57,277 bases of DNA from a virus. Taxonomy: Duplodnaviria > Heunggongvirae > Uroviricota > Caudoviricetes. The translations under genes were made by a program, and so were the position numbers. The notes below the pieces were generated by a model. The model saw nothing but the letters and a program-made list of their open reading frames with translations. It ran no database searches and was not told the DNA's origin. The stretch lies in IMG/VR virus record IMGVR_UViG_2721755643_000007; one strand, given 5' to 3'. Of this stretch, positions 29,021 through 55,955 are shown one piece after another (within the stretch, counting starts at the first letter, position 1; every line of letters starts with the position of its first letter).

Positions 29021-29021
29021 A

Positions 29022-30411: not shown

Positions 30412-33392
<2,981 letters not shown>

Positions 33393-33418
<26 letters not shown>

Positions 33419-33938: not shown

Positions 33939-34160
33939 TGTTCATTCCACGGACAAAAACAGAGAAAGGAAACGACAGAGGCCAAAAAGCTCGCTTTCAG
34001 CACCTGTCGCTTCCTTTCTTTTCAGAGGGTATTTTAAATAAAAACATTAAGTTATGACGAAGAAGAACGGAAACGCCTTAAACCGGAAAATTTTCATAAA
34101 TAGCGAAAACCCGCGAGGTCGCCGCCCCGTAACCTGTCGGATCGCCGGAAAGGACCCGCA
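33939..34160. other. helper prophage cos site (cosB-cosN-cosQ)
   Basis: AGGTCGCCGCCC at 34116-34127 is the reverse complement of the lambda cohesive end; flanking sequence matches the recalled lambda left end toward Nu1. Confidence 0.85.
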
Positions 34161-34326
34161 AAATGATAATAATTATCATCTGCATGTCACAACGTGCATC
34201 TACGCCATCAAACCACGTCAAATAATCAATTATGACGCAGGTATCATATTAATTGATCTGCATCAACTTAACGTAAAAACAACTTCAGACAATACAAATC
34301 AGCGACACTAAATACGGGACAACCTC

Positions 34327-34560
34327 ATGTCAACGAAGAACAGAACCCGCAGAACAACAATCCGCAACATCCGCTTTCCTAACCAAATGATTGAACAAAT
34401 TAACATCGCTCTTGATCAAAAAGGGTCCGGGAATTTCTCAGCCTGGGTCATTGAAGCCTGCCGCCGGAGACTGTGCTCAGAAAAAAGAGTTTCTCCTGAA
34501 GCAAACAAAGAAAAGAGTGACATTACTGAATTGCTCAGAAAACAGATCAGACCAGATTGA
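34327..34560 (+). CDS. small DNA-binding protein, ribbon-helix-helix-like
   Basis: 77 aa; IRNIRFPNQMIEQINIALDQ...NFSAWVIEA fits an RHH fold. Confidence 0.45.
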   Translation: MSTKNRTRRTTIRNIRFPNQMIEQINIALDQKGSGNFSAWVIEACRRRLCSEKRVSPEANKEKSDITELLRKQIRPD

Positions 34561-34601
34561 AGCAATTTAGATAATCGTGCAGACTACGCCCCTCATATCA
34601 C

Positions 34602-35027
34602 ATGGAAGGTACTACAATGGCTCAGGTTGCCATTTTTAAACAAATATTCGATAAAGTGCGAAATAATTTAAACTATCACTGGTTTTATTCTGAACTAAAA
34701 CGTCACAATGTCTCACATTACATTTACTATTTAGCTACAGAGAATATTCATCTTGTTCTTGAAAACGATAATACGGTTTTAATAAAAGGACAGGGTAAGG
34801 TTGTAAATGTAAGATTTTCAAAAAATAAATGCCTTATAGAAGCCACCTTAAAAGGATTCAAATCAGGAGAGTTATCATTTTACGAATACAGGAAAAATCT
34901 TGCTACAGCAGGGGTTTTCAGATGGATTACAAATATCCACGAAAACAAAAGGTATTACTATACCTTTGATAATTCATTACTCTTTACTGAGAACATTCAG
35001 AACACTACACAAATATTTCCGCACTAA
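34602..35027 (+). CDS. hypothetical protein (141 aa) in the post-lysis moron region
   Basis: ORF in AT-rich DNA; no family recognised. Confidence 0.4.
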
Positions 35028-35376
35028 ATCATAACGTCCGGTTTCTTCCGTGCCAGAACCGGACTCGCTGGCATGATGAAATATGTGTACCCGGTAACCC
35101 CGGTGTGCATCGTTTTTGATTATTCCCGCACACTCGCGCAGAAGGAGTTCCCCGTCGGGCTACGGTCTCTGTTAATACGGGAATACGGCGACGATACAGC
35201 GCATGATGTGTCAGGCTTGAATGCCTTTATCCGTTAAAAGGGATATCAGTTAAGTTATCCCGTGCAGGGTATAAGCCATTATCAAGCCCACCCGTAGATG
35301 GGCTTTGTAATGGATAGCCGTTGCTCAGTTCTAGTAATGCTTTGATTTTTTCGATAACGCAGTTTTGCGTTTGCCA

Positions 35377-35898
35377 TCAGCACGCGATATCGAGAGTCAA
35401 CTGCAGTTGCTCGCGCCAGTACTCAACATTTGCTTCAATAACCGGCTTATCCCATCGCCAGCGAGCCATCTCTCTTGCCCCATTGCTGGCTTTTGATTTC
35501 CGGTCATCGCGAATGCGACATGCTTGCTCATATTTCTGCTGCTCAGTCAGTTCACCGCGAAGCAGACTATCAATGTGCAGGTCGCACCACACAGCAAAAC
35601 GAGCATCACACCAACGGGCAAATGCAACTGAAAGTTTTGGATGTAGCCACGTACCACCACCCCTGTCCTTTCGTGCCTTGCTGGTTTTTACATACCTCGA
35701 TTGTGAGGGATGTAAAATTTGAGATTCTTTCCCGGTCAACGCTTCGTCTAAAGCACGAACGTATTCAAGCGTTTCTGCCAAACGCATCCAGTTATCAATG
35801 CGTTTCCCAAATCTCTCAGCAACACCTGTGACGTTGATCCAACCATCAGTGTTGAAACTGACAATTTCACCTTTGTAATTAAGTGGCACGATATTCAT
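35377..35898 (-). CDS. putative KilA-N / antirepressor-like domain protein
   Basis: 173 aa; N-terminal region resembles KilA-N domains; assignment tentative. Confidence 0.4.
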   Translation of the reverse strand: MNIVPLNYKGEIVSFNTDGWINVTGVAERFGKRIDNWMRLAETLEYVRALDEALTGKESQILHPSQSRYVKTSKARKDRGGGTWLHPKLSVAFARWCDARFAVWCDLHIDSLLRGELTEQQKYEQACRIRDDRKSKASNGAREMARWRWDKPVIEANVEYWREQLQLTLDIAC

Positions 35899-36102
35899 AA
35901 CGTTTACCTACCATTTGAAATGAACCTTTGCCGCACAGGAAACCAGCCCACCGAGGCTCGCCAGCACTAACTGGTATCCTCAAAGGCCCATTCCAAAGGG
36001 GCAGGTTCGGTGTAAAAAAAACATGCGTTGCGGTACGCATTTATTGCAAAAAAGCCCCGCATCGCGAGGCTCATTAAATGGACTTTGTGATTTGCAAAAA
36101 AA

Positions 36103-36552
36103 TTATTTCAGACATTGCGTCCTGATGTACTCCTGCAGGTAGTTAACCTGCGCGGTTATCCTGTCGATTCCACTTCGGAGACGGTAATAATTGAGTTCAG
36201 CATCTGCTGTAAGTCTTGGGCTTTCTCCATCGCCCATGCTGCTGGCTCCGGTCTTTGACTTTGCACAGGAGGCGGCGACTTGCAGCCGCTTACGCCCAGC
36301 AGAAACATCATCACGGAAACTTTCGATAGTCGCGTTAGCATCAGCAAGCTCCTTTGTATATCTGGCATCGAGTTCTGCTACGTCACGTTGACGCTTCTGC
36401 ATGTCAGCGATGATGGATGTGGCTTTGTCGCGCTGTTCTTTGTAGGTCATGGCGTTATCACGGTAATGATTAACAGCCCATGACAGGCAGACGATGATGC
36501 AGATAACCAGAGCGGAGATAATCGCGGTTACTCTGTTCATTGCTGACCCCAC
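36103..36552 (-). CDS. Rz: i-spanin Rz
   Basis: N-terminal [29 protein letters not shown] and coiled-coil like lambda Rz. Confidence 0.9.
36156..36341 (-). CDS. Rz1: o-spanin Rz1 (lipoprotein embedded in the +1 frame of Rz)
   Basis: Embedded ORF with lipobox LLGVSGC and a Pro-rich segment. Confidence 0.65.
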
Positions 36553-37034
36553 AAACAGATTTCACGCTCAATCTCACGACGAGTCATGAGACCTTTCCAT
36601 TGCTTACCGCCAGCATATGTCCAGCGACGTAGCTGATCACATGCGCCTTTGATATCGCCCTGGTTTATTTTGCGAAGAAGCGTCGATGTTCTGAAATTGC
36701 CAGCACCCACGTTGTAAACGAATGAGTAAAGAGCGCCGCGCATTGTTTCCGGTATATCGACTTTGATGTACGGGTTAATTTGTCTGGCGACCGTGGCAAG
36801 GTCTTTATTCAGGAGGGCTTTGCATTCTGCTTTGGTATACGTTTTACCGAGCATGATGTCTTTTCCTGTATGCCCGTGACATACAGTCCATACACCAACA
36901 ATATCTTTGTATGGTATGTAGCTGACACCTTCCAGACCATCGTTACCACTTGGGCCAGTAATTAACACTGATGCTATAGCAATTGCTCCGCCACCAATAG
37001 CAGCAGCAACGGCTTTTCGTAATGATGGAGGCAT
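36537..37034 (-). CDS. R: SAR endolysin (phage 21 R-like lysozyme)
   Basis: 165 aa [27 protein letters not shown] with Gly/Ala-rich SAR segment; matches recalled phage 21 endolysin. Confidence 0.9.
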
Positions 37035-37249
37035 TATTCACCTCTCGCAGCCTTGTGCTTATCTTCTTTAATCTTGAAATAAAGGTTTGTCAGGTACGTC
37101 AGCAGGCCAAATACCAGGCTACCCAGCACACCTATTGCTGCCCACTGTGAGGGCGTGACTTTATCGAGCAGCTGTAAAAACCAGTAACCGGCACTACCTG
37201 CTGAGGTGCCATAGGCGACACCCGTTGTTAACTTATCCATGGATTTCAT
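37034..37249 (-). CDS. S: pinholin (S21-like)
   Basis: [29 protein letters not shown]...; two TM segments, dual-start MK..M motif. Confidence 0.85.
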
Positions 37250-37294
37250 AACCCCACCTCGCAGACAAAGCGGGTGTAAATTGAGGGAATACAA

Positions 37295-37837
37295 CGTATC
37301 GCAAAAAAGCAGAAACGTAACAGACTCGGAGTCAGTGAATAACTCAGGTATTGAGTTATCAGCTAATATCGAGACTCAAAAAATGGAAAAACCAGCTCGA
37401 CGGCGGGTTTAAGCTGTGTGACGAAGTAACCACTCTTAACAGCATAACCAATTTTTTACGTACGTAAACCACTGAATGATATTTATGAGAATGCTACCGA
37501 GTGTTCAAAACACCACCACAAATACATAAGAAAACCTCAACAAATAACCAATAAATAATTTCAGAGGTTATTTTTAGTTGATTTAAATTAAACTGCCGAA
37601 TTATAGAACCCCCATAAATAACAGCCATTAATATAAATTAGCTAATAGGTTTATTTTTGTTCAAATAAGAGCCATAAATAGGTTTCGATAGAAAAAGTTC
37701 AGATAAAAATAGAGATCTACTTCACAAATTAAATGAGAAACTAAAACTTACATCTTGAAATAATCACATTGATTAGATGAATATTTATCGCGCAGTGACA
37801 TCATTTTTTAATAATAGTTCAAAAAAAAGGGCTCACG
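37295..37837. promoter_or_regulatory. AT-rich upstream region of the porin gene
   Basis: About 540 bp of AT-rich non-coding DNA with curved-DNA-like A/T tracts. Confidence 0.35.
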
Positions 37838-38920
37838 ATGAAAAAATTAACAGTGGCAATTTCTGCTGTAGCTGCATCAGTACTGATGGCGATGTCTGCT
37901 CAGGCAGCTGAAATTTATAATAAAGACAGTAACAAGCTGGATCTGTACGGGAAAGTTAATGCTAAGCACTACTTCTCCTCTAATGATGCAGATGATGGTG
38001 ATACTACTTATGCCCGTCTTGGCTTCAAAGGTGAAACCCAAATCAACGATCAACTGACTGGTTTCGGTCAGTGGGAATATGAATTCAAAGGCAACCGCGC
38101 TGAATCTCAAGGTTCCTCCAAAGACAAAACCCGTCTTGCATTTGCAGGCCTGAAATTCGGTGACTACGGCTCAATCGATTACGGCCGTAACTACGGTGTA
38201 GCATACGACATCGGTGCGTGGACTGACGTTCTGCCAGAATTCGGTGGCGATACCTGGACCCAAACAGATGTATTCATGACTGGTCGCACCACAGGTGTTG
38301 CAACTTATCGTAACAACGACTTCTTTGGTCTGGTTGATGGCCTGAACTTTGCAGCTCAGTATCAGGGCAAAAATGACCGAAATGAAGTAACTGAAGCTAA
38401 TGGCGATGGTTTCGGTTTCTCAACTACTTATGAGTATGAAGGATTCGGCGTGGGTGCAACCTATGCTAAATCTGATCGCACTAATAATCAGGTTATCTAC
38501 GGTAACAACGGTCTGAATGCTTCTGGTCAAAATGCTGAAGTATGGGCAGCTGGTCTGAAATATGATGCGAACAACATCTATCTGGCCACCACCTATTCTG
38601 AAACCCAGAACATGACTGTTTTTGGTAATAACCATATTGCCAACAAAGCACAAAACTTCGAAGCTGTTGCACAATATCAGTTCGACTTCGGCCTGCGTCC
38701 ATCCGTTGCTTACCTGCATTCTAAAGGAAAAGACTTGGGTGTTTGGGGTGATCAGGACCTGGTTGAATATGTTGATGTAGGTGCAACCTATTACTTCAAC
38801 AAAAATATGTCCACTTTTGTTGACTACAAAATCAACCTGATTGATAAGAGCGATTTCACGAAAGCATCTGGCGTTGCTACCGATGATATCGTTGCTGTAG
38901 GTATGGTTTACCAGTTCTAA
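37838..38920 (+). CDS. nmpC: outer membrane porin (NmpC/Lc family, lysogenic conversion)
   Basis: 360 aa with signal peptide; OmpC-family sequence ending VAVGMVYQF; sits between Q and the lysis genes in opposite orientation as in DLP12. Confidence 0.85.
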
Positions 38921-39056
38921 TTTGATTACTAAAAGATATGTTGCGGGAGGCTTTGCCTCCCCAACATATAAGTGGCTCCCTCAAGCCACTTCCTTTAGGA
39001 GCACAACCTTGCTTCTAACTATATAAACCTTCTGTTATATATTACCCTTTATTTTT

Positions 39057-39082
39057 GGGGGCGTCTCAACGCCCCATTTTTA
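39057..39082 (+). terminator. rho-independent terminator downstream of the porin gene
   Basis: GGGGCG-TCTCAA-CGCCCC followed by ATTTTTAATAATTTTT. Confidence 0.55.
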
Positions 39083-39108
39083 ATAATTTTTAGTAAACAA
39101 TTGGCATA

Positions 39109-39492
39109 TTAATTAGAGTTATTAACAACGATATCCATCTCTAACCGGATATCTAATGCCATTAACATCCCTTCAATTATACCCTCAGCCTTCTGTAACC
39201 TTTTCCCGATATAACCATCAGAGCAGCAATGCTTACCTGCCAGTGACATGAATGTCATACCGACTACATAATAATCTACTAATAAATCGTGCAAATCGCT
39301 GTTGTTCTTTTTCAGACGGGCCATGCACCCGCAAATGATCATCGCGTCATCGTCACAACATTGCGGGCGAGATTTTACTTTTGAAGGAATTAATCCCTTA
39401 AAACCGGCGGCAATGGACGACCAGGTCACATCTTCATGATTATTAGCCGCCCACGCTCCCCAACGCTCAAGAACCATCTGAATATCACGCAT
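39109..39492 (-). CDS. Q: late-gene antiterminator Q (82/21 type)
   Basis: [33 protein letters not shown] matches recalled DLP12 quuD-type Q; ORF track extends 5 codons upstream. Confidence 0.85.
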
Positions 39493-39714
39493 CAACTTAC
39501 TCCACAAAAATCAGACCAGAACGCCAATTACAAGCAAAAATCAATAAAACAGTATTAGTTGATTGTTATCTCTGACTTCATACTCCTGCTCCTGTCAGGG
39601 TTTTGGCGTAATTCCTCAGTATTCGGTAATCGGTCAAAACAGAACCGGGGAAACGATATAAGCGCAGGCGCATCCAGCGGTGGCGAAGACGTTCTGCCAT
39701 ATAAGACTCAAACA

Positions 39715-40077
39715 TCATTCATCTCCCAGTTCAGTGATGGTCAGTTCCAGCTTCCCACCTTTGGTAACAGGCATCTTCACAACGCGGTAATCAACGACCA
39801 GCTCATCATCCAGCCAGAAACCTGCTTTAGTGAGTGCGTCAAAAGCGGCTTTTTGCAGATTATCCAGGTCACGGCGACAGCGATCCGGCATGTGGCACTC
39901 AATGCGGATTTTCACAGGCATAGCCAGGCCGATATCCAGCATTGCGTTTTTAATGATTCGGGCGACGTTATCGCGGTATGCCTGCCCCTCTGCGCTGACG
40001 TGCGTGCGCCCGCGATTATGGCGGTAATAGCGATTATTGCTCGGAGGCCAGGGTAATGTGATGCTGTAGGTATTCAC
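39715..40077 (-). CDS. rusA: Holliday junction resolvase RusA
   Basis: 120 aa [36 protein letters not shown] matches RusA. Confidence 0.9.
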
Positions 40078-40364
40078 GCCTTAATAACCCCCTCTTTCAG
40101 CCAGATAACCTGTATTCTCGCCATACCTTCCAGCGCGCATTCTTTTGCATATGCAGCATCGACAAAATGCGTGCGGCGGTCGATTTCGTCGTGGCAGGCA
40201 GAACATGCAATGGTGGCAATCAGGTCTGGCGGTTTGGTACCGGTGCCGCACAATCCAGTCAGCCGGATATGTGCCAGTACAGACGTTTCAGGGTTGCCAT
40301 TACATACGCCAGGGATTCTTACCTGGCATTCCCGACCACGCGCTGCTTTTCTCAAATCAGCCAT
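40074..40364 (-). CDS. YbcO-like protein (DUF1364)
   Basis: Start [23 protein letters not shown]; start overlaps the ninE stop (ATGGCTGA). Confidence 0.75.
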
Positions 40365-40527
40365 GATTCCTCCTTGCTGCCAGTCGCAACCATTTTTTAT
40401 CAACCAGGCTGGCGGTATATCCGAGCAGTGTTGGTATTTCGGATGGTTTCAGCTCAGGCTTACGCTTACGACGATTTGGTACTCTGTAGATGTGTCCGTT
40501 CATGACACGAATAAGCGGTGTAGCCAT
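40357..40527 (-). CDS. ninE: NinE
   Basis: 56 aa [56 protein letters not shown] translated by hand from the minus strand; below the ORF-track cutoff. Confidence 0.75.
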   Translation of the reverse strand: MATPLIRVMNGHIYRVPNRRKRKPELKPSEIPTLLGYTASLVDKKWLRLAARRNHG

Positions 40528-40982
40528 TACGCCTCCTGCTTGTCGCGCAGCAGCTGGAACTCGCAGCTCTGCGGAATAGTCAGGTGGCAGCCAATATTCA
40601 TCGCCCAGGCTTCAACCTTACACAGGAAGACATACATCTCTCCGGTATCAAGATTGGAGGTATGACGTAATGACTGAATGGTGGTGATTTCACCGGTTAC
40701 GACATCAACCAGTTCTTTGGTTTCATAACCGAGATAAGTGTGTTTGAGAGCATCTTTTACCCAAGCTGGAGTGGCGAACGTTTTACCCCTGCTGATGAGG
40801 TATTCACTGATTTCGCTGTACCACATGTGGCTGAGTGCATTCTGGGAAAGACTGCGTCTCTCGCGCCACGGTTTAAGCACCATGCGAAAGCATTTGCCGT
40901 CCTCCAGATAAGGCTGGATCTGCCGACCGATAGCGGTGAAGTTACCGCGATGCAATTTGATACCATCTTGTGGGAGGTTCAC
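40527..40982 (-). CDS. YbcN-like protein (nin region)
   Basis: 151 aa [30 protein letters not shown] matches recalled DLP12 YbcN. Confidence 0.8.
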
Positions 40983-41174
40983 GCTTCACCTCCGCAGAGA
41001 TCAAACGCTGGATGCAAAATATCGCAGGTGCATTTCTGCATCTGTGAATGGAGAAGAGAGGTTGGATTGTATGTGCGCATAAACGTCCCCGTTTAGCGCA
41101 GAAGTCACCGGAGGAGTTCAAACTCCGGTGACTTAATTATGGCAAGTTGATTGTTGAAAATCAATTTAGTGGAT

Positions 41175-41957
41175 TTAGGCGCAATACAAAGGATCATTAG
41201 CAGCTCTAATACCGCCCTGAATCGCAAGCCCTGTATGGCAATTTGACATTGAGCATGATTGCCATCTGTGCAAGGGACCTCCATTAATCGAAACTTCCAG
41301 CAGATCTTTATCTCCTTTCATCCTGACCCCTTCATACAACATATCAAGACGCTCAACAATCAATCCTGTTGGAGGTTCCATTTTTAGAACGAGGGCAAAC
41401 TCTCCTGGCCCACGTCGTATTGTTATACGCGGGCCGGTACACTCCACATCCCAATTGTCTGATTTAGCTTTCCATTCATTTTCATCTATCAGTAAAGTCT
41501 CCTTACCAATAGAATTACAGAAAATTCCTGATAAAAGCATCGGTCCATGTGGTATGGGTGAAGGTTTCACAGAAAGAATGGGTTGTTCGTTGACTACAAT
41601 CAAATTTTGACAGTTATGAAACGTCACTCCTGCAAATTTTACTGTTATAGGCTCATTATGAAAATCAAACATTTCATTTGCAAAACCAGCCTGTAAGCAC
41701 TTGGGATTTCTGTCAGCTATTTCCACTGTCTGTGCTGAAAGTCTACCACGAGCTCTTTTTTGATTGCATTGGGAGCAAAGAAGTGTCATTCCATTCGGAT
41801 CATGTATTTTGGCATCAACGAAGTCAGGTTTAAAATGCTCATAATCATAAAATCCAAATCCACAAATTACACAGCCAAAGCCGCACCTTTGCCTTATCTG
41901 ACGTTTTATTGTCTCAGGTATTCTTCTTGAGAGCCCGTGTTTATTAATATTGTCCAT
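41175..41957 (-). CDS. HNH endonuclease domain protein with an unknown C-terminal domain
   Basis: 260 aa; N-terminal Cys pairs CGFGCVIC ... CSQCNQ with YDYEHFKP and HDPNG between; AT-rich flanks. Confidence 0.6.
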   Translation of the reverse strand: MDNINKHGLSRRIPETIKRQIRQRCGFGCVICGFGFYDYEHFKPDFVDAKIHDPNGMTLLCSQCNQKRARGRLSAQTVEIADRNPKCLQAGFANEMFDFHNEPITVKFAGVTFHNCQNLIVVNEQPILSVKPSPIPHGPMLLSGIFCNSIGKETLLIDENEWKAKSDNWDVECTGPRITIRRGPGEFALVLKMEPPTGLIVERLDMLYEGVRMKGDKDLLEVSINGGPLHRWQSCSMSNCHTGLAIQGGIRAANDPLYCA

Positions 41958-48637: not shown

Positions 48638-48706
48638 AATTGACTCCTTTAGTTTGAATTGACTGTTAAGTTGATTGCTTATTGTTAAAGAGCGTGAAAT
48701 GGAAAT

Positions 48707-48937
48707 TTAAGCTGCGTTCTTTTCGGTGTGTGGAAACAACTTCGGAAGATCCGGGCGAATCTGGTATGCCTTCACTACTCCACCAGTAGCCGTAACAATG
48801 CTGCCGACATGTTCAGGGGATACCTTTGCTTTGTTGTGAAGCCACTTATAGACGGCCTGCTGTGAAACTTCGCAAGCAGCGCCCAGTTTCTTTTGTGAAC
48901 CAACGATATTGATCGCTGTTTTGATAGCTGGGTTCAT
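48707..48937 (-). CDS. Cro-like HTH repressor
   Basis: 76 aa with HTH GSQKKLGAACEVSQQAVYKWL; divergent from cI. Confidence 0.75.
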   Translation of the reverse strand: MNPAIKTAINIVGSQKKLGAACEVSQQAVYKWLHNKAKVSPEHVGSIVTATGGVVKAYQIRPDLPKLFPHTEKNAA

Positions 48938-49041
48938 AACAACCTCCGTGGTTAATTTGAATCAAGATTAAAACTATGGTTGTTTTTAGTCAACAACCAT
49001 TTTCGTTTGATGGGATAAAACCTTGGTTGTACATTTGGACT
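48938..49041. promoter_or_regulatory. immunity-region operators/promoters (OR-like) between cro and cI
   Basis: Inverted repeat ATGGTTGTT-tttagtc-AACAACCAT plus a further CCTTGGTTGT half-site in the divergent intergenic region. Confidence 0.6.
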
Positions 49042-49731
49042 ATGAAAACAACACTCTCAGAAAGACTTAAAGAAGCCAGATTAGCGCGAGGCCTTACACA
49101 AAAGGCGCTTGGGGATTTGGTCGGGGTTAGCCAGGCTGCTATTCAGAAAATCGAAACAGGGAAAGCTAATCAAACAACTAAAATCGTGGAGATCGCGAAC
49201 GCTTTGGGTGTGCGCGCAGAATGGTTATCTTCTGGCGTTGGAAATATGTCAGACAGTACAGTGCAACCAATACAATCAACTGTCAGCCATTCCAAATACT
49301 TCAAGATTGACGTTCTTGATATAGAAGTCAGTGCTGGGCCGGGAGTCATCAACCGTGAGTTTGTAGAAGTTCTACGCTCGGTTGAGTACTCGTTTGACGA
49401 TGCTCGTCACATGTTCGATGGTAGGAAGGCGGAAAATATCCGCATCATTAACGTGCGTGGTGACAGCATGTCAGGAACGATCGAACCAGGTGATCTGCTG
49501 TTCGTTGATATCACAGTTAAATCTTTCGACGGTGATGGTATCTATGCGTTTCTGTACGACGACACAGCCCATGTAAAGCGCCTGCAAATGATGAAGGATA
49601 AGCTGCTGGTCATCTCTGATAACAAAAGCTACTCACCGTGGGACCCGATCGAGAAAGACGAGATGAACCGGGTGTTCATCTTCGGTAAGGTTATTGGGAG
49701 CATGCCGCAGACATATAGGAAGCATGGGTAG
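49042..49731 (+). CDS. cI: CI-type repressor (HTH plus S24 LexA-like peptidase domain)
   Basis: Start MKTTLSERLKEARLARGLTQKALGDLVGVSQAAIQKIE; C-terminal GDSM ... K catalytic-dyad region; ORF track extends 22 codons upstream. Confidence 0.85.
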   Translation: MKTTLSERLKEARLARGLTQKALGDLVGVSQAAIQKIETGKANQTTKIVEIANALGVRAEWLSSGVGNMSDSTVQPIQSTVSHSKYFKIDVLDIEVSAGPGVINREFVEVLRSVEYSFDDARHMFDGRKAENIRIINVRGDSMSGTIEPGDLLFVDITVKSFDGDGIYAFLYDDTAHVKRLQMMKDKLLVISDNKSYSPWDPIEKDEMNRVFIFGKVIGSMPQTYRKHG

Positions 49732-49852
49732 TACCAATTAAAAATTATCAACTGGGCATTGTGCTCATTCAGTAAAGAACTAATTCCTATCTTTGCTCTA
49801 GGTAGTAATATTAAGCCACCGCAATAATATCTTTACCTAACGGCGTAAGAAT

Positions 49853-49879
49853 CCCGGTCACCGTGCCGGGTTTTCTTTT
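49853..49879 (+). terminator. rho-independent terminator downstream of cI
   Basis: CCCGGTCACCGTGCCGGG followed by TTTTCTTTT. Confidence 0.6.
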
Positions 49880-50010
49880 GCCCTCCCCTCATCACACACA
49901 CACCGTTAAAAAAACCACCATAACCTCGCTTCAGTTATCGCTATGCGATTCAAGTCACAAAATAAATCCATCCTAAATACAACCAGTTATATCTAAAACA
50001 ACCAATAAAA

Positions 50011-50053
50011 CAACTTTTGTTGTTGACGATAAAACAACTATAGTTTTAAATAA
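50011..50053 (+). promoter_or_regulatory. pL-like promoter with OL-like operator
   Basis: AACAAC-TTTT-GTTGTT inverted repeat overlapping TTGACG (50025-50030), 17-nt spacer, TTAAAT (50048-50053); shares the ACAAC half-site with the OR region. Confidence 0.45.
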
Positions 50054-50244
50054 GTTCATCGCAACAACACAACGATACGGCAACTACCTGATTCACCGTT
50101 GCGATGACCGCTTAGATCCGCAGTTTGAATTTCAGCAGGCTTCGGGGAGTGCGAGGGGTGAAACGGACGCGTGAACGTCGGTGTGACCAGCTGAAATTAA
50201 CTCAACATTTCATACCTTAGTCGCTTCAACGAGGCGGCTTAGTT

Positions 50245-50535
50245 ATGACAACCGGCGGCCATCCACCGCCTGAATACGCGCAGAAGTCTCTATATGTTCA
50301 GCAGCCCAGCTTACGGGCAGGAGTTTTTATGGTTCATCAACATTATGGAACGCAGACCGTTAATCGAGGTGCGGTCATGCCAGGAATGCTGGTCAAACAC
50401 AAAGATGGTACCTGGACTGCATCAGCTAATTTACGCGGACGGCTTTATCTGCATCGCGGCATCGAGCGCACTTATACCCGTGATTTGCTCGTGGAAGTTT
50501 TTCTCGACGGACGCGGTAACGGCCTGAATCACTAA
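50245..50535 (+). CDS. hypothetical protein (96 aa), first ORF of the leftward early operon
   Basis: ORF upstream of gam; not similar to recalled lambda N, cIII or kil. Confidence 0.35.
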
Positions 50536-50610
50536 TCCCCTTTCCTGTTTTCCTAATCAGCCTGGCATTTCGCGGGCGATATTTTCACAGCCATTTTCAG
50601 GAGGTCAGCC

Positions 50611-50907
50611 ATGAACGCTTATTACATTCAGGATCGTCTTGAGGCTCAGAGCTGGGCGCGTCACTACCAGCAGATCGCCCGTGAAGAGAAAGAGGCAGAA
50701 CTGGCAGACGACATGGAAAAAGGCCTGCCCCAGCACCTGTTTGAATCGCTATGCATCGATCATTTGCAACGCCACGGGGCCAGCAAAAAAGCCATTACCC
50801 GTGCGTTTGATGACGATGTTGAGTTTCAGGAGCGCATGGCAGAACACATCCAGTACATGGTTGAAACCATTGCTCACCACCAGGTTGATATTGATTCAGA
50901 GGTATAA
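50611..50907 (+). CDS. gam: Gam (RecBCD inhibitor, short form)
   Basis: 98 aa [56 protein letters not shown] matches lambda GamS. Confidence 0.95.
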
Positions 50908-50912
50908 AACGG

Positions 50913-51698
50913 ATGAGTACAGCACTCGCAACGCTGGCAGGGAAGCTGGCTGAACGTGTCGGCATGGATTCTGTCGACCCACAGGAACTGATCACCACTC
51001 TTCGCCAGACGGCATTTAAAGGTGATGCCAGCGATGCGCAGTTCATCGCATTGTTGATCGTCGCCAACCAGTACGGCCTTAATCCGTGGACGAAAGAAAT
51101 TTACGCCTTCCCTGATAAGCAGAACGGCATCGTTCCGGTGGTGGGCGTTGATGGCTGGTCCCGCATCATCAATGAAAACCAGCAGTTTGATGGCATGGAC
51201 TTTGAGCAGGACAATGAATCCTGTACATGCCGGATTTACCGCAAGGACCGTAATCATCCGATCTGCGTTACCGAATGGATGGATGAATGCCGCCGCGAAC
51301 CATTCAAAACTCGCGAAGGCAGAGAAATCACGGGGCCGTGGCAGTCGCATCCCAAACGGATGTTACGGCATAAAGCCATGATTCAGTGTGCCCGTCTGGC
51401 CTTCGGATTTGCTGGTATCTATGACAAGGATGAAGCCGAGCGCATTGTCGAAAATACCGCATACACTGCAGAACGTCAGCCAGAACGCGACATCACTCCG
51501 GTTAACGATGAAACCATGCAGGAGATTAACACTCTGCTGATCGCCCTGGATAAAACATGGGATGACGACTTATTGCCGCTCTGTTCCCAGATATTTCGCC
51601 GCGACATTCGCGCATCGTCAGAACTGACACAGGCCGAAGCAGTGAAAGCTCTTGGATTCCTGAAACAGAAAGCCACTGAGCAGAAGGTGGCAGCATGA
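50913..51698 (+). CDS. bet: Bet (Red beta single-strand annealing protein)
   Basis: 261 aa [50 protein letters not shown] matches lambda Bet. Confidence 0.95.
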
Positions 51699-52375
51699 CA
51701 CCGGACATTATCCTGCAGCGTACCGGGATCGACGTGAGAGCTGTCGAACAGGGGGATGATGCATGGCACAAATTACGGCTCGGCGTCATCACCGCTTCAG
51801 AAGTTCACAACGTGATAGCAAAGCCCCGCTCAGGAAAGAAGTGGCCTGACATGAAAATGTCCTACTTCCACACCCTGCTGGCTGAGGTTTGCACCGGTGT
51901 GGCTCCGGAAGTTAATGCTAAGGCGCTGGCCTGGGGAAAACAGTACGAGAACGACGCCAGAACCCTGTTTGAATTCACTTCCGGCGTGAATGTTACTGAA
52001 TCCCCGATCATCTATCGCGACGAAAGTATGCGCACCGCCTGCTCTCCCGATGGTTTATGCAGTGACGGCAACGGCCTTGAACTGAAATGCCCGTTTACCT
52101 CCCGGGATTTCATGAAGTTCCGGCTCGGTGGTTTCGAGGCCATAAAATCGGCTTACATGGCCCAGGTGCAGTACAGCATGTGGGTGACGCGAAAAGATGC
52201 CTGGTACTTTGCCAACTATGACCCGCGTATGAAGCGTGAAGGCCTGCATTATGTCGTGATTGAGCGGAATGAAAAGTACATGGCGAATTTTGACGAGATG
52301 GTGCCGGAGTTCATCGAAAAAATGGACGTGGCACTGGCTGAAATTGGTTTTGTATTTGGGGAGCAATGGCGATGA
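51695..52375 (+). CDS. exo: Exo (lambda exonuclease)
   Basis: 226 aa [51 protein letters not shown] matches lambda Exo. Confidence 0.95.
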
Positions 52376-52554
52376 AGCATCCTCACGATAATATCCGGGT
52401 AGGCACGATCACTTTCGTCTACTCCGTTACGAAGCGAGGCTGGGTATTTCCCGGCCTTTCTGTTATCCGAAATCCCCTGAAAGCACAGCGGCTGGCTGAG
52501 GAGATAAATAATAAACGGGGAGCTGTATGCACAAAGCATCTCCCGTTGAGTTAA
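52366..52554 (+). CDS. small hypothetical ORF (62 aa)
   Basis: Small ORF overlapping the exo stop, co-oriented with the operon. Confidence 0.35.
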
Positions 52555-52718
52555 GAACGAGTATCGAGATGGCACATAGCCTCGCTCAAATTGGAGTCAG
52601 GTTTGTGCCAATACCAGTAGAAACAGACGAAGAATTTCATACGTTAGCCGCATCCCTTTCACAAAAGCTGGAAATGATGGTGGCGAAAGCAGAAGCAGAT
52701 GAGAGAGACCAGGTATGA
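52527..52718 (+). CDS. small hypothetical ORF (63 aa)
   Basis: Small co-oriented ORF. Confidence 0.35.
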   Translation: MHKASPVELRTSIEMAHSLAQIGVRFVPIPVETDEEFHTLAASLSQKLEMMVAKAEADERDQV

Positions 52719-53010
52719 CAACCACGGAATGCATTTTTCTGGCAGCGGACTTCATATTCTGTGTGCTTATGCTTGCCGACATGGGACTTGTTCAATGACA
52801 CCTCAGCAGGAAAACGCCCTTCGCAGCATTGCCCGTCAGGCTAATTCTGAAATCAAAAAAGCCAGACAGCAGTTTCCGGATAAAAACGTCGATGACATTT
52901 GCCGTAGCGTACTGAAGAAGCACCGCGAAACGGTAACGCTGATGGGATTCACACCGACTCATTTAAGCCTGGCAATCGGCATGTTAAACGGCGTCTTTAA
53001 GGAACGATGA
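52699..53010 (+). CDS. small hypothetical protein (true start possibly the internal MTPQQENALRSIARQ)
   Basis: Co-oriented ORF in the ea-type region. Confidence 0.4.
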   Translation: MRETRYDNHGMHFSGSGLHILCAYACRHGTCSMTPQQENALRSIARQANSEIKKARQQFPDKNVDDICRSVLKKHRETVTLMGFTPTHLSLAIGMLNGVFKER

Positions 53011-53108
53011 ACATGAAAAGCAAAATCATCAGGGAGCTACAGGCTCCTTTTTTATTATTCGCATTCACCCTCAAGCGTATTAACCAACAATTCAGGGATT
53101 AATGGAAG

Positions 53109-53330
53109 ATGGCAGACATCATTGATTCAGCATCAGAAATTGAAGAATTACAGCGCAACACAGCAATAAAAATGCGCCGCCTGAACCACCAGGCTATATC
53201 TGCCACTCATTGTTGTGAGTGTGGCGATCCGATAGATGAACGAAGACGCCTGGTCGTTCAGGGTTGTCGGACTTGTGCAAGTTGCCAGGAGGATCTGGAG
53301 CTTATCAGTAAACAGAGAGGTTCGAAGTGA
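53109..53330 (+). CDS. DksA/TraR-family C4 zinc-finger protein
   Basis: 73 aa with CCECGDPIDERRR ... CRTCASCQ four-Cys motif. Confidence 0.8.
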   Translation: MADIIDSASEIEELQRNTAIKMRRLNHQAISATHCCECGDPIDERRRLVVQGCRTCASCQEDLELISKQRGSK

Positions 53331-53540
53331 GCGAAATTAACTAGAAGCCAAAGATAAAATCATCGCTGAGCAGGAGAAAATCGCTAACGGAGAAAAGACA
53401 GTAAGTCAGTATATGAAAACCGCATGATATCATCAGATAAAAATCGGTCGTAAAGCGAAATATTAATACCAGAACAAACGAGTCGAGGTAAATTATATTA
53501 CCTCGATAAATTAACTAAAACTTGCCCGCTATATACTATA

Positions 53541-54143
53541 TCATTCAGTATCATCACGCGCGGTCTGTGCATATGTCACTACCGCACCTAATATATTAAT
53601 TTTCTTTTCAACATAGATAATATTATCGTACTCATAATTGCCATACGGATAGCAAATGCGAATATTCTCATGTAGTTCGGGGTCATCCACCTCAGCTCCA
53701 GAACAACTTTTTGAACTACCGGAAGTATACCGATACGGTGCAACATAAGACGATGTCTCTCCAGGCAAAAAATAAGTTAGTGTCGTAAGGGGTATAATCA
53801 GAAAAAATCCAGCAAATATGCACATCCCTGCATAAACCTTAAGGTATGCTGACAGACTCTTCCAGCCTCTTTGTTTTACTATCCCCTTCTTAACCCAAAA
53901 CAGAGATAACAGAAAAGCTATTCCCATGCTAAACAGAATGTAATAGTGGGATATACTCTGATTAAGAAACGTGACCCTGTAGATATCTGCCCGCCACCAG
54001 AAGAAAAGGAAAATAAAGATCAGCCCTGAAACTGTCATGCAAATCAAATAAGGATACGAATCTTTTTTCATGTTTAGCGCCCATAAAATTTTTCCTGACC
54101 CGGACAAATTTACCATCCATTTTTTGCGCAGAAAATAGCTCAT
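53541..54143 (-). CDS. integral membrane protein (4 predicted TM segments), moron-like
   Basis: 200 aa with hydrophobic segments LICMTVSGLIFIFLFFWW, YYILFSMGIAFLLSLFWV, MCIFAGFFLIIPLTTLTYF; AT-rich; opposite to neighbours. Confidence 0.55.
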   Translation of the reverse strand: MSYFLRKKWMVNLSGSGKILWALNMKKDSYPYLICMTVSGLIFIFLFFWWRADIYRVTFLNQSISHYYILFSMGIAFLLSLFWVKKGIVKQRGWKSLSAYLKVYAGMCIFAGFFLIIPLTTLTYFLPGETSSYVAPYRYTSGSSKSCSGAEVDDPELHENIRICYPYGNYEYDNIIYVEKKINILGAVVTYAQTARDDTE

Positions 54144-54385
54144 TACTTACTGCACAATAATACACAAAATTGCGTAAATTTTTTGCATGGATTTTAGCTC
54201 TTTCAGCCGAAATTTAAGGGGTAAATAGCATTTCCTAAAAGCAACTGCACCAACCCAACAGAATGGGCTACCGCTTACGTTGAGAGCAAAAAAGTGTATA
54301 GCAGCAATGAACAGCATCCTCGCACTGACGAGGATTTCTTTTATCTGAACTCGCTACGGCGGGTTTTGTTTTATGGAGATGATAA

Positions 54386-54553
54386 ATGCACTTCCGAGTC
54401 ACAGGTGAATGGAATGGAGAACCATTCAACAGAGTTATCGAAGCCGAGAACATCAGCGACTGCTATGACCACTGGATGCTGTGGGCGCAGATAGCACATG
54501 CAGACGTAACCAATATTCGAATTGAAGAACTGAAAGAACACCAAGCCGCCTGA
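54386..54553 (+). CDS. small hypothetical protein (55 aa) upstream of xis
   Basis: MHFRVTGEWNGEPFNRVIEAENISDCYDHWMLWAQIAHADVTNIRIEELKEHQAA; GGAG 7 nt upstream; translated by hand. Confidence 0.45.
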   Translation: MHFRVTGEWNGEPFNRVIEAENISDCYDHWMLWAQIAHADVTNIRIEELKEHQAA

Positions 54554-54566
54554 TGGCGGTTTTTTC
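54545..54566 (+). terminator. putative rho-independent terminator overlapping the end of the small ORF
   Basis: CCGCC-TGAT-GGCGG followed by TTTTTTC. Confidence 0.5.
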
Positions 54567-54592
54567 TTGCGTGTAATTGCGGAGACTTTGCG

Positions 54593-54811
54593 ATGTACTT
54601 GACACTTCAGGAGTGGAACGCACGCCAGCGACGCCCAAGAAGCCTTGAAACAGTTCGTCGATGGGTACGCGAGTGCAGGATATTCCCTCCTCCGGTTAAG
54701 GATGGAAGAGAGTATCTGTTCCACGAATCAGCGGTAAAGGTTGACTTAAATCGACCAGTAACAGGTAGCCTTTTGAAGAGGATCAGAAATGGGAAGAAGG
54801 CGAAGTCATGA
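54593..54811 (+). CDS. xis: excisionase Xis
   Basis: 72 aa MYLTLQEWNARQRRPRSLETVRRWVRECRIFPPPVKDGREYLF matches lambda Xis. Confidence 0.95.
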   Translation: MYLTLQEWNARQRRPRSLETVRRWVRECRIFPPPVKDGREYLFHESAVKVDLNRPVTGSLLKRIRNGKKAKS

Positions 54812-55859
54812 GCGCCGGGATTTACCCCCTAACCTTTATATAAGAAACAATGGATATTACTGCTACAGGGACCCAAGGACGGGTAAAGAGTTTGGATTAG
54901 GCAGAGACAGGCGAATCGCAATCACTGAAGCCATACAGGCCAACATTGAGTTATTTTCAGGACACAAACACAAGCCTCTGACAGCGAGAATCAACAGTGA
55001 TAATTCCGTTACGTTACATTCATGGCTTGATCGCTACGAAAAAATCCTGGCCAGCAGAGGAATCAAGCAGAAGACACTCATAAATTACATGAGCAAAATT
55101 AAAGCAATAAGGAGGGGTCTGCCTGATGCTCCACTTGAAGACATCACCACAAAAGAAATTGCGGCAATGCTCAATGGATACATAGACGAGGGCAAGGCGG
55201 CGTCAGCCAAGTTAATCAGATCAACACTGAGCGATGCATTCCGAGAGGCAATAGCTGAAGGCCATATAACAACAAACCCTGTCGCTGCCACTCGCGCAGC
55301 AAAATCAGAGGTAAGGAGATCAAGACTTACGGCTGACGAATACCTGAAAATTTATCAAGCAGCAGAATCATCACCATGTTGGCTCAGACTTGCAATGGAA
55401 CTGGCTGTTGTTACCGGGCAACGAGTTGGTGATTTATGCGAAATGAAGTGGTCTGATATCGTAGATGGATATCTTTATGTCGAGCAAAGCAAAACAGGCG
55501 TAAAAATTGCCATCCCAACAGCATTGCATGTTGATGCTCTCGGAATATCAATGAAGGAAACACTTGATAAATGCAAAGAGATTCTTGGCGGAGAAACCAT
55601 AATTGCATCTACTCGTCGCGAACCGCTTTCATCCGGCACAGTATCAAGGTATTTTATGCGCGCACGAAAAGCATCAGGTCTTTCCTTCGAAGGGGATCCG
55701 CCTACCTTTCACGAGTTGCGCAGTTTGTCTGCAAGACTCTATGAGAAGCAGATAAGCGATAAGTTTGCTCAACATCTTCTCGGGCATAAGTCGGACACCA
55801 TGGCATCACAGTATCGTGATGACAGAGGCAGGGAGTGGGACAAAATTGAAATCAAATAA
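54789..55859 (+). CDS. int: lambda integrase (tyrosine recombinase)
   Basis: 356 aa MGRRRSHERRDLPPNLYIRNNGYYCYRDPRTGKEFGLGRDRR matches lambda Int. Confidence 0.95.
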   Translation: MGRRRSHERRDLPPNLYIRNNGYYCYRDPRTGKEFGLGRDRRIAITEAIQANIELFSGHKHKPLTARINSDNSVTLHSWLDRYEKILASRGIKQKTLINYMSKIKAIRRGLPDAPLEDITTKEIAAMLNGYIDEGKAASAKLIRSTLSDAFREAIAEGHITTNPVAATRAAKSEVRRSRLTADEYLKIYQAAESSPCWLRLAMELAVVTGQRVGDLCEMKWSDIVDGYLYVEQSKTGVKIAIPTALHVDALGISMKETLDKCKEILGGETIIASTRREPLSSGTVSRYFMRARKASGLSFEGDPPTFHELRSLSARLYEKQISDKFAQHLLGHKSDTMASQYRDDRGREWDKIEIK

Positions 55860-55955
55860 TGATTTTATTTTGACTGATAGTGACCTGTTCGTTGCAACAA
55901 ATTGATAAGCAATGCTTTTTTATAATGCCAACTTAGTATAAAAAAGCAGGCTTCA
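55860..55955. other. attL (B-O-P') of the lambda-like prophage
   Basis: Reverse complement reads CCTGCTTTTTTATACTAAGTTGGCATTATAAAAAAGCATTGCTTATCAATTTGTTGCAACGAACAGGTCACTATCAGTCAAAATAAAATCA, i.e. the lambda core GCTTTTTTATACTAA (within 55932-55947) joined to the P' arm; host DNA begins beyond. Confidence 0.85.

Follow-up and report, generated by a model that had tools for sequence, protein, structure and literature searches.

An element at the lambda attachment site of Escherichia coli VL46, very probably an ordinary mosaic lambda-family prophage, carries emrE and a porin gene

The window considered here, the whole 57,277-nucleotide stretch of DNA analysed, matches E. coli VL46 NZ_CM177010.1 3344401–3401677 at 100% identity. 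The prophage in it is ~58 kb long and delimited by exact copies of the 15-bp lambda att core; a single copy lies in the window (chance expectation 0.01), and a second lies ~2.2 kb to its left (L002 2781–2795), adjoining ybhB. The following features run leftward from the core in the window towards cos.

55933–55947, minus strand: attL core, an exact match to the 15-bp lambda att common core GCTTTTTTATACTAA, between int and ybhC (55994–57277)
54593–55859, plus strand: xis (54593–54811) and int (54789–55859), each 99% identical to lambda Xis/Int over full length
53541–54143, minus strand: gene for a 200-aa hypothetical protein at the place of lambda ea8.5/ea22, on the strand opposite xis/int
50329–53330, plus strand: pL operon (kil-like, gam, bet, exo, DUF1317, DUF1382, orf61-like, TraR-like), 98% nucleotide identity to lambda 33193–30380
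48098–49731: non-lambda immunity genes, namely a cI-like S24 repressor (49042–49731, plus), a cro-like gene (48707–48937, minus) and a YdaT-domain cII-like gene (48098–48637, minus)
46384–48101, minus strand: replication genes O-like (47082–48101) and P (46384–47085), compared with lambda below
44808–46138, minus strand: IS2, 1331 bp, in the 3′ end of ren, with a 5-bp target duplication (GGCAC) at 44803–44807 and 46139–46143
42567–44681, minus strand: cargo module of emrE (44349–44681), ylcJ (44151–44300) and the large serine recombinase gene ybcK (42567–44093), 96.8% nucleotide identity to DLP12
41175–42455, minus strand: variable slot at the place of DLP12 ybcL-ybcM, with genes for a P22AR C-terminal-domain protein (42132–42455) and a 260-aa hypothetical protein (41175–41957)
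39109–41080, minus strand: DLP12-type nin/late-control block (ylcH, ybcN, ninE, ybcO, rusA, ylcG and Q, the last at 39109–39492), 96.8% nucleotide identity to DLP12
37838–38920, plus strand: intact porin gene of OmpC/NmpC type (Pfam Porin_1, E 3.6e-152), lying between Q and S in antisense to the late operon
36103–37249, minus strand: lysis cassette of S21-type pinholin (37034–37249), SAR endolysin R (36537–37034) and Rz (36103–36540)
within 36156–36368, minus strand: Rz1 lipoprotein ORF embedded in Rz, lipobox LLGVSGC
34327–35898: lysis-to-cos region (PGAP annotation), with a KilA-N protein gene at the bor place (35377–35898, minus; Pfam KilA-N), DUF1398 (34617–35027, plus) and YlcI (34327–34560, plus)

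In nucleotide alignments, homology to lambda stops precisely at lambda 27724, the first base of the core. Lambda matches of 94–99% cover 54316–55947 (xis, int, P′ arm), 50529–53342 (gam to orf61), 46139–47548 (ren, P and the 3′ part of O) and 30459–34489 (5′ part of B, W, A, Nu1, cos), and none of at least 90% falls within 35203–46139. Matches to DLP12 reach 96.8% over 38879–41164 and 42558–44808 and 89.5% over 36281–38862. An earlier, sequence-only reading had described lambda modules joined at att-lambda to a DLP12-type nin, late and lysis module; the module map and protein identities bear this out, the nin and lysis region being less lambda-like than the structural region. Its placement of the element beside ybhC agrees with the positions of the two cores. 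Our data indicate that VL46 very probably has an ordinary mosaic prophage of the lambda family at its lambda attachment site and, with similar assurance, that 34160–55955 comprises the half of this ~58-kb temperate prophage that serves regulation, replication, recombination and lysis. The lambda structural genes, earlier counted within that interval, fall outside it. No evidence contradicting the identification was encountered.

Gam, Bet and Exo are 97%, 100% and 98% identical to their lambda counterparts, and P is 97% identical. Over 92% of its length, O is 66% identical to lambda O, and it is 98% identical to O of phage PhiR70_1; the lambda nucleotide match ends at window position 47548, and the lambda-like portion of the gene is the 3′ part only. 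The near-identity to lambda proposed earlier holds for Int, Xis, Exo, Bet, Gam, P, Nu1, A, W and E (97–100%), but not for O. The kil-like product matches phrog_294. The 200-aa gene found no match in lambda, DLP12, PhiR70_1, PhiR34_1, Pfam or PADLOC, and the C-terminal half of its product matches phrog_1416 (function unknown).

The immunity genes sit within a non-lambda stretch (47548–50529), and lambda cI, cro, cII, N and cIII are each without a match across the window. We found no N ORF between cI and kil and no plus-strand ORF of at least 40 aa in 49732–50245; the missing N-type antiterminator weighs against full function of this copy. The immunity region, however, is 99.8% identical to that of phage PhiR34_1 and 99.6% identical to that of phage Turner, both of which share its N-less arrangement. 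The sequence-only reading had passed over this stretch, as it had the IS2, the frameshift in H and the satellite in B described below. The IS2 transposase has the same orientation as emrE, and the element, which lies 126 bp upstream of emrE, is 99.4–99.7% identical to IS2 copies within phage records (PGAP label, IS2 family transposase). Relatives are without this IS2.

EmrE (Pfam Multi_Drug_Res) and YbcK (Pfam Resolvase, Recombinase and Zn_ribbon_recom) are 99% and 97% identical to their DLP12 counterparts; a simple consensus scan 5′ of emrE gave no clear promoter. YbcK has a complete large-serine-recombinase domain set, an intact catalytic motif (YMRFSSPGQ) and a dN/dS of 0.08, and the mosaic boundaries coincide with module ends, features that would fit a separate integrative emrE-ylcJ-ybcK cassette moved by YbcK and present in the nin region by chance. 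We consider such a cassette very unlikely, however: every one of the 12 phage records, like the E. coli genomes sampled, has the module beside ren at one position and in one orientation, no alternative insertion site was seen, and the sole other emrE context found (fliE-yedK) is without ybcK.

Beyond this module, the mosaic prophage continues with the variable slot, whose genes match phrog_7640 and phrog_6544 and have no match in lambda, DLP12, PhiR70_1, PhiR34_1 or PADLOC. The nin/late-control block shows 85–99% protein identity to DLP12 (Q 99%, rusA 94%, ybcO 98%, ninE 98%, ybcN 95%). Q, previously called 82-type, matches PF06530 (E 8.5e-54) and the Q21 structures 6jnx/6p18 (E 7.6e-8) and lacks similarity to the Q82-like protein of phage 434; its sequence places it in the Q21 family (PF06530), not the Q82 family. 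The porin is 91% identical to the IS5-disrupted NmpC of DLP12 and 99% identical to the 'OmpD' of PhiR70_1. In the lysis cassette, S matches Pfam 'Bacteriophage P21 holin S' (E 7e-35), R is identical to PDB 3hde over 165 aa, and both are 99% identical to their DLP12 counterparts. The window contains no bor homologue.

Lambdoid phages can acquire DLP12 late regions, and a hybrid could have formed recently in VL46 when a lambda-like phage entered and recombined with a DLP12 remnant already resident there, as for the classical qsr′ substitution phages and 434B. One phage 434 record is annotated with non-homology to '434B' and crossover points in DLP12-like genes, and another (OL657227.1) has an IS5-disrupted nmpC. 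Here, however, the DLP12-like segments are only 89.5–96.8% identical to K-12 DLP12, the porin gene is intact and close to that of PhiR70_1, and the junctions of ren with emrE, ybcK with the slot and the slot with ylcH are common to free phages of unrelated sources. At least 80% of the region is present in 56 genomes. A recent origin in VL46 is therefore highly improbable.

On the left, from cos onward, the mosaic prophage carries its late genes, interrupted by a satellite.

34116–34127, minus strand: cosN, the 12-nt lambda cohesive end AGGTCGCCGCCC; window 34127/34128 equals lambda 1/48502
30472–33938, minus strand: Nu1, A, W and the 5′ part of portal gene B (30472–31293), 98% nucleotide identity to lambda 1–3670
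19574–30471, minus strand: helper-embedded PICI satellite (HE-PICI) of 10,898 bp at codon 275 of B, with the 8-bp identity block ATCGCCTT at 19566–19573 and 30464–30471
4232–19573, minus strand: 3′ part of B, C, D, E, FI, FII, Z, U, V, G, T, H, M, L, K, I and J, 96% nucleotide identity to lambda 3658–18002

Nu1, A and W are each 99% identical to lambda, and E is 98% identical. The proteins of 4232–19573 are full length except H, the tape-measure protein, whose ORF is split at about codon 150: near 12243 a single base is missing from a run that reads A4 in lambda, phage 21 and PhiR70_1 and A3 here. The tfa gene is also frameshifted. Because B is split by the PICI, H is frameshifted and ren is interrupted by IS2, induction of this copy to infectious particles is uncertain.

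Together with the tfa frameshift, these lesions raise the possibility of a grounded, defective prophage, with emrE and the porin gene as resident chromosomal genes rather than cargo of a mobilisable phage, a reading to which we give somewhat less than an even chance. The ren gene, however, is dispensable, and laboratory lambda is without functional side tail fibres. The two single-base indels fall within homopolymers in a whole-genome-shotgun assembly and could be assembly errors. The remaining lambda morphogenetic genes are intact, as are int, xis, both att cores, O, P, Q, S, R and Rz.

The 10.9-kb insert that splits B is a site-specific HE-PICI, and simulated excision gives back a portal ORF of 533 aa (528/533 identical to lambda B), so that, judged from the sequence, the split is reversible if the PICI excises; excision of such an island after induction is reported to have been observed (PMC10111431). 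The element encodes int, AlpA, Bro-N, a D5/DUF5906 primase, SSB, and capsid-E-like, HDPD-like and Nu1-like products, and has its own cosN at 21319–21395. It shares with HE-PICI group B:Phage_portal_2:241 (B_Phage_portal_2_241; Tommasini, Mageeney and Williams 2023, PMC10111431) the target gene, the att identity block aaggcgat, the ~10.9-kb size, co-orientation with the late gene, the zone order int-AlpA / Bro-N / primase / late genes and a doubled TGTATTGC motif either side of attP (here 19648–19667 and 30314–30333). In the window PICI a Nu1 homologue (38% identical) is present at full length; terS is said to be missing from the type element 11capE (PMC10111431). We found no contradictions with the published group. 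The satellite lies beyond 34160–55955 yet within the same prophage.

The mosaic prophage would have been placed between ybhC and ybhB by lambda Int. Its lambda-type parts (int/xis/attP, Red genes, P/ren, cos, terminase, head and tail) are joined to a non-lambda immunity/origin module (S24-type cI, cro, YdaT-type cII, the O N-terminus, no N) and to a DLP12 (qsr′)-type module, ordered emrE, ylcJ, ybcK, variable slot, ybcN, ninE, ybcO, rusA, ylcG and Q21-family Q, followed by antisense porin, S21-type pinholin, R21 SAR endolysin and Rz/Rz1. This mosaic type probably circulates as viable phage. The cI-like repressor would keep lysogeny until its SOS-induced self-cleavage led to the lytic programme; Int and Xis would excise the prophage at the 15-bp cores, O and P would replicate it, and Q may act as the late antiterminator, letting transcription run across the antisense porin gene to the genes for lysis and morphogenesis. 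Both emrE and the porin gene are probably morons (accessory and unneeded for the phage cycle), which would spread by lysogenic conversion. IS2 and the PICI are probably later insertions in this copy, and the PICI would have to excise before portal protein synthesis.

The combination ren-emrE-ybcK is carried by 11 distinct sequenced lambdoid phages (12 records): PhiR70_1 (PV340577), PhiR34_1 (PV340559), 4A7, Lambda_4C10, 1W, 3W, D2, Perceval, Turner, PhiR47_2 and PhiR68_2. Records of phages with the same architecture give E. coli C or K-12 as host. Among 5426 complete E. coli genomes, 1386 have the module. EmrE was reported in two lambda isolates by Mathieu et al. (2020; PMC6969025). The arrangement is not new: emrE, porin and YbcK recombinase on such phages are already documented by the sequenced free phages and the 2020 paper. 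The earlier suggestion that emrE and a porin ride on a potentially inducible lambda-type phage is true in kind, with the inducibility of this copy in doubt.

Relative to lambda, the att core, Int, Xis, Exo, Bet, Gam, P, cos, Nu1, A, W and B through I are 94–100% identical in the window prophage, whereas J (82%) and Lom (45%), like O, are more distant, and homologues of N, cIII, cI, cro, cII, ninB, ninG, Q, S, R and bor are absent. Phage 21 has an R 100% identical to the window R and an S 85% identical with a common dual-start pinholin layout; its Q belongs to the same Pfam family yet is only 30% identical. Phage 21 differs in its lambda-type nin (ninB, ninE, ninF, ninG), in tRNA genes after pR′, in a different integrase at icd and in being without emrE, ybcK and porin; the 'phage-21-like' label given earlier to nin and lysis suits R and S but not nin.

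PhiR70_1 and PhiR34_1 have the overall architecture of the window prophage. PhiR70_1 aligns with it nearly end to end at 96–98%, taking in lambda int/xis, Red, O/P/ren, emrE-ybcK, Q, porin, S, R and the lambda structural genes, but its cro and the N-terminus of its cI are different, and cI is followed by three additional genes; PhiR34_1 differs in its integrase. The window copy is set apart by IS2, the HE-PICI and the 200-aa gene, and by different contents of its ybcK-ybcN and bor slots.

DLP12 (qsr′) of E. coli K-12 shares with the window the gene order ren, emrE, ylcJ, ybcK, then ylcH, ybcN, ninE, ybcO, rusA, ylcG, quuD, nmpC (antisense), essD, rrrD, Rz, then ylcI and nohD, with most products 94–99% identical (porin 91%). 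DLP12 occupies argU and has another integrase; its genes for immunity, replication and structure have been lost, and its ren and nmpC contain IS3 and IS5, respectively, whereas the window prophage, at att-lambda, has IS2 in ren, an intact porin gene, complete lambda-type int/xis, Red, O/P and morphogenesis genes, P22AR-C and 260-aa genes for ybcL/ybcM, and KilA-N for borD. K-12 DLP12 is a decayed remnant of the same kind of phage.

The E. coli VL46 chromosome (NZ_CM177010.1) contains the finding region (window 34160-55955) at 100% identity; the window occupies its positions 3344401-3401677, and in the RefSeq annotation the prophage is flanked by ybhB/bioA and, at the opposite end, by ybhC. A single exact copy of the 15-bp lambda att core GCTTTTTTATACTAA was found in the window (0.01 copies expected by chance), at 55933-55947 in the interval between int and ybhC, which identifies the int-proximal junction as attL, as the sequence-only reading had it. 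A second exact and unique core adjoins ybhB at 2781-2795 of L002, the locus to the left, about 2.2 kb from the window's left end, giving a core-to-core prophage length of ~58.2 kb. Since cores stand at both ends, the prophage was integrated by a lambda Int. Int and Xis are full length and each 99% identical to their lambda counterparts, and the nucleotide match extends to lambda position 27724, the core boundary. With the core, Int/Xis and P′ arm, and the cos-to-tail genes all present, the element is a lambda-type prophage integrated at att-lambda.

The first reading had described a mosaic in which lambda modules are joined to a nin, late and lysis region of the type found in DLP12 (qsr′), the cryptic prophage of E. 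coli K-12. BLAST comparisons of the window were made with lambda and phage 21, with the DLP12 region of K-12 and with two free phages; the alignments to lambda and DLP12 bore this description out. The nin/lysis region was not as lambda-like as the structural region: between 35203 and 46139 there was no lambda match at ≥90% identity.

Segments of the prophage by nucleotide match (window positions)
5233-19573: lambda, 94-99%; J back to the 3′ part of B
30459-34489: lambda, 94-99%; 5′ part of B, W, A, Nu1, cos, lambda right end
46139-47548: lambda, 94-99%; ren, P, 3′ part of O
50529-53342: lambda, 94-99%; gam, bet, exo, small ORFs
54316-55947: lambda, 94-99%; xis, int, P′ arm to core
36281-38862: DLP12, 89.5%; Rz, R, S, porin
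38879-41164: DLP12, 96.8%; quuD back to ylcH
42558-44808: DLP12, 96.8%; ybcK, ylcJ, emrE
bor position: unmatched; KilA-N gene
41175-42455: unmatched; P22AR-C protein and 260-aa protein in the ybcL/ybcM position
44808-46138: unmatched; IS2
53541-54143: unmatched; 200-aa opposite-strand ORF between TraR and xis

Protein comparisons followed the same division. Near-identity to lambda, which had been proposed for O as well, held for Int and Xis together with Exo (98%), Bet (100%), Gam (97%), P (97%), Nu1, A and W (99% each) and E (98%), but not for O, which is only 66% identical. Nu1 through J were all found in lambda order at 82-100% identity, with B split by an insert and H frameshifted. On the other side of the mosaic, the DLP12 order is kept (emrE, ylcJ, ybcK, then ybcN, ninE, ybcO, rusA, ylcG, Q, the antisense porin, S, R and Rz), and identity to DLP12 is 99% for Q, S, R and EmrE, 98% for ybcO and ninE, 97% for YbcK, 95% for ybcN, 94% for rusA and 91% for the porin; the departures from DLP12 are ybcL/ybcM and borD, which are replaced. 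As judged from these alignments, the original observation is confirmed with errors of detail, and its mosaic interpretation is right.

Lambda, DLP12 and the lambdoid phages PhiR70_1 and PhiR34_1 have no match to four short segments (listed as unmatched), and those segments that encode proteins all belong to existing PHROG families. Pfam gave no match for the 260-aa and 200-aa ORFs. A reading of the variable slots as defence systems is unsupported: in PADLOC the 260-aa and 200-aa products, YbcK and the P22AR-C and YdaT-type proteins had no match, and the KilA-N protein had just a weak one, to PDC-S22.

The early control region departs furthest from lambda. The lambda nucleotide match stops at 47548, within O, and the N-terminal, origin-specific part of O therefore differs. 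From there to 50529 lies a non-lambda immunity region encoding a cI of the S24 type together with cro-like and cII-like proteins, the last with a YdaT domain; homologues of lambda N, cIII, cI, cro and cII were absent from the window, and no N-sized ORF was found between cI and kil. Besides N and cIII, homologues of ral, sieB and rex are lacking in the interval 49732-50330, and the pL operon seems to open directly with a kil-like gene. Phages PhiR34_1 and Turner share this N-less immunity region (99.8% and 99.6% identity), so it is not a deletion peculiar to the VL46 prophage. PhiR70_1 and others differ in carrying two or three additional genes after cI, and phage 21 differs in having tRNA genes after pR′; searches of the whole window with Rfam (gathering thresholds) and ARAGORN found no RNA family and no tRNA, so the absence of N from the early region is not explained by any known RNA family. 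Lacking lambda immunity and N, the element is lambdoid with a heterologous immunity module rather than lambda proper.

The late regulator had been called an 82-type Q, and this assignment fails. PF06530, the Q21 family, was the only Pfam match to the window Q (E = 8.5e-54, covering the whole profile), while PF06323, the Q82 family (PMC9388147), was found in the Q82-like protein of phage 434 (E = 1e-91), our Q82 comparator, which bears no similarity to the window Q (BLASTP E = 46). The window Q also matches the Q21 structures 6jnx/6p18 (E = 7.6e-8); as its identity to Q21 is just 30%, it represents the DLP12 QuuD branch of the Q21 family. The description of the nin and lysis region as phage-21-like stands for S and R only, since phage 21 itself has a lambda-type nin region with ninB, ninE, ninF and ninG. 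S has two starts, M1 and M4, and belongs to the Pfam family "P21 holin S" (E = 7e-35). All 165 residues of R agree with phage 21 R and with PDB 3hde (full-length R21), and the Rz gene holds an embedded lipoprotein ORF. These features identify the lysis system as one of the phage 21 pinholin and SAR-endolysin type, with spanins. The neighbouring antisense gene encodes a protein of the Pfam family Porin_1.

Apart from B (split) and H (frameshifted), the lambda morphogenetic genes from Nu1 to J are full length in this copy. H has lost one base near 12243, where lambda, phage 21 and PhiR70_1 read A4 and this copy A3, and its ORF is split at about codon 150; PhiR70_1 has a different 1-bp deletion in H. 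A 1-bp indel beside an A-run likewise frameshifts tfa, which spans window 1-426 and L002 4841-5426. Both indels lie in homopolymers and could be real mutations or assembly errors. If real, the H frameshift would be lethal for the phage; that in tfa would not be, since laboratory lambda lacks functional side tail fibres.

Two further features of this end of the prophage deserve mention. At window 3562-7729 the host-range genes depart from lambda: J shares 82% identity with lambda J and 90% with J of phage 21 and PhiR70_1, and identity to lambda falls to 45% in the Lom-like protein; given this divergence, receptor specificity may differ from that of lambda. To the left, in the equivalent of the b region between the tail-fibre assembly gene and attR, L002 3436-4767 (~230-1560 bp left of window position 1) encodes a sensor-domain diguanylate cyclase, a possible further moron.

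The insert in the portal gene is the more striking feature of the prophage, yet it matches a published group. It occupies 10,898 bp (19574-30471), outside the finding region, and splits B at codon 275, its core genes all lying on the same strand as B. Zones follow in the order int-AlpA, Bro-N, primase/SSB and late genes (homologues of capsid protein E, decoration protein D and Nu1), and the integrase combines the Arm-DNA-bind_3 and Phage_integrase domains. The doubled motif tgTGTATTGCantgTGTATTGCa (family motif TGTATTGC) occurs exactly twice in the window, in co-oriented copies at 19648-19667 and 30314-30333, with the nearest motif edges 78.5 and 134.5 bp from the reconstructed attP centre; in helper-embedded PICIs (HE-PICIs), co-oriented motif copies lie 81 and 132 bp from the attP centre (PMC10111431), and both pairs of distances sum to 213. 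The 8-bp att block of the island, ATCGCCTT, is the reverse complement of aaggcgat, the block listed for Eco14781.11.B_Phage_portal_2_241, an element of 10,899 bp (supplement, PMC10111431). These correspondences indicate that the island is a helper-embedded PICI of the published group B:Phage_portal_2:241 (Tommasini, Mageeney and Williams, PMC10111431). At ≥80% coverage it is present in at least 52 complete E. coli genomes, and the top-listed matches run through the portal flanks.

Simulated excision joins GGCGGCATACATCGCCTT to CACAATGG (window plus strand) and yields a 533-aa portal ORF identical to lambda B at 528 of 533 positions. Taken with the HE-PICI features of the island, this makes the split a regulated interruption and not necessarily a lesion. 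In window 20676-21395 the island also carries its own cosN (21319-21395), with a 12-nt cohesive end equal to that of the helper, one flank kept and the other diverged, and a full-length Nu1 homologue 38% identical to lambda Nu1; the type element 11capE is described as lacking terS (PMC10111431). Together, the cosN and the diverged Nu1 homologue suggest that packaging specificity may be redirected through the satellite's own small terminase subunit.

The gene families present point to the following life cycle. The S24-type repressor would silence the prophage until SOS-triggered self-cleavage derepressed the early operons; Int and Xis would then recombine the two cores, and O/P would replicate the DNA. 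Q of the Q21 family would load at the late promoter and take RNA polymerase through a 1.9-kb stretch containing the antisense porin gene, so that Q-modified transcription could enter the lysis genes S, R and Rz/Rz1 and pass over cos into the morphogenetic genes, with portal synthesis waiting on excision of the satellite. emrE and the porin gene would be morons, spreading by lysogenic conversion with the whole phage and not by transduction of host DNA.

EmrE belongs to the SMR family (PF00893, E = 2e-35) and differs from K-12 EmrE by one amino acid. The IS2 at 44808-46138 (1331 bp, IS3 family) is 99.4-99.7% identical to annotated IS2 copies and flanked on both sides by a 5-bp GGCAC duplication. 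The insertion, which the first reading had not mentioned, interrupts ren at its 3′ end; it lies upstream of emrE by 126 bp and in the same orientation, and is absent from most close relatives, being shared among them only with strain RMDEC364. A consensus promoter scan of the IS2/emrE junction found no outward hybrid promoter, and any effect of IS2 on emrE expression in VL46 is speculative.

YbcK is the one element of the prophage without a known role, and that role is the only point here with some wider reach. Its domains (PF00239, Resolvase; PF07508, Recombinase; PF13408, zinc-ribbon) mark it as a putative large serine recombinase, the N-terminal catalytic motif YMRFSSPGQ is intact, and a dN/dS of 0.08 against three other alleles indicates strong purifying selection. 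Within the phage collection it is confined to the ren-emrE-ybcK module, the next-best matches being ≤33% identical. Since YbcK is intact and under purifying selection in the nin region of an entire clade of lambda-type phages, which already use the tyrosine recombination functions Int/Xis, we allow a slim chance that it serves an undescribed job there: it might provide a second integration/excision route, move or invert the emrE cargo, or interfere with other mobile elements. Otherwise YbcK would be a relic. We also considered emrE-ybcK as an independent cassette, but the phage records and the sampled E. coli genomes yielded no other context containing ybcK.

The history of emrE has two further aspects. 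Within 42567-44681, emrE has at most one difference from each of its alleles in DLP12, PhiR70_1 and PhiR34_1, whereas ybcK shows a dS of ~0.16 to the same three alleles, which are nearly identical to one another; this contrast implies a recombination breakpoint between emrE and ybcK. Outside the window, a locus of E. coli 85.0412 (NZ_CP122448.1 2219985-2223428) has fliE, emrE, ybcL, ybcM, an antisense porin gene and yedK; the four genes between fliE and yedK are the cargo genes of the DLP12-type module, and their relative orientation is retained. The genes ren, ybcK and other phage genes are not annotated there. Diverged emrE of this fliE-yedK type (92% identity) occurs in many E. coli genomes, and the cluster represents either the source of the cargo or what is left of a prophage after extreme decay.

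The proposal that this prophage places emrE and a porin gene on a lambda-type phage is true in kind, but such carriage is not new. Lambdoid porin conversion (lc of PA-2; nmpC in qsr′/DLP12) has been known since the 1980s, and records of phage 434 contain the DLP12 late region, including an IS5-disrupted nmpC, on a lambdoid phage. EmrE has been reported in two lambda isolates (Mathieu et al. 2020, PMC6969025). Eleven distinct sequenced lambdoid phages share the order ren-emrE-ylcJ-ybcK (Turner, Perceval, Lambda_4C10, 4A7, 1W, 3W, D2, PhiR34_1, PhiR47_2, PhiR68_2 and PhiR70_1), the status of the PhiR members as isolated phages resting on the host field of their records (a literature search did not find the source paper), and at ≥80% coverage the module occurs in 1386 of 5426 complete E. 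coli genomes, roughly one in four.

PhiR70_1 (recorded host E. coli C) aligns with the prophage almost end to end at 96-98%, taking in int/xis, Red, O/P/ren, emrE-ybcK, ybcN to Q, the porin, S, R and the lambda morphogenetic genes. PhiR70_1 and PhiR34_1 as a pair account for 77% of the finding region at ≥90% identity, against 49% for lambda and DLP12. A recent origin by recombination with a resident DLP12 was rejected on the identity levels and on junctions held in common with free phages. The relevance of the arrangement is small beyond correct annotation: the "chromosomal" emrE, nmpC-type porin and ybcK of K-12 belong to a module still carried by viable lambda-type phages, and the VL46 att-lambda prophage is a composite of helper phage, embedded satellite and IS2, whose mosaic arrangement and its implication are already known from sequence databases and, in part, from the literature.
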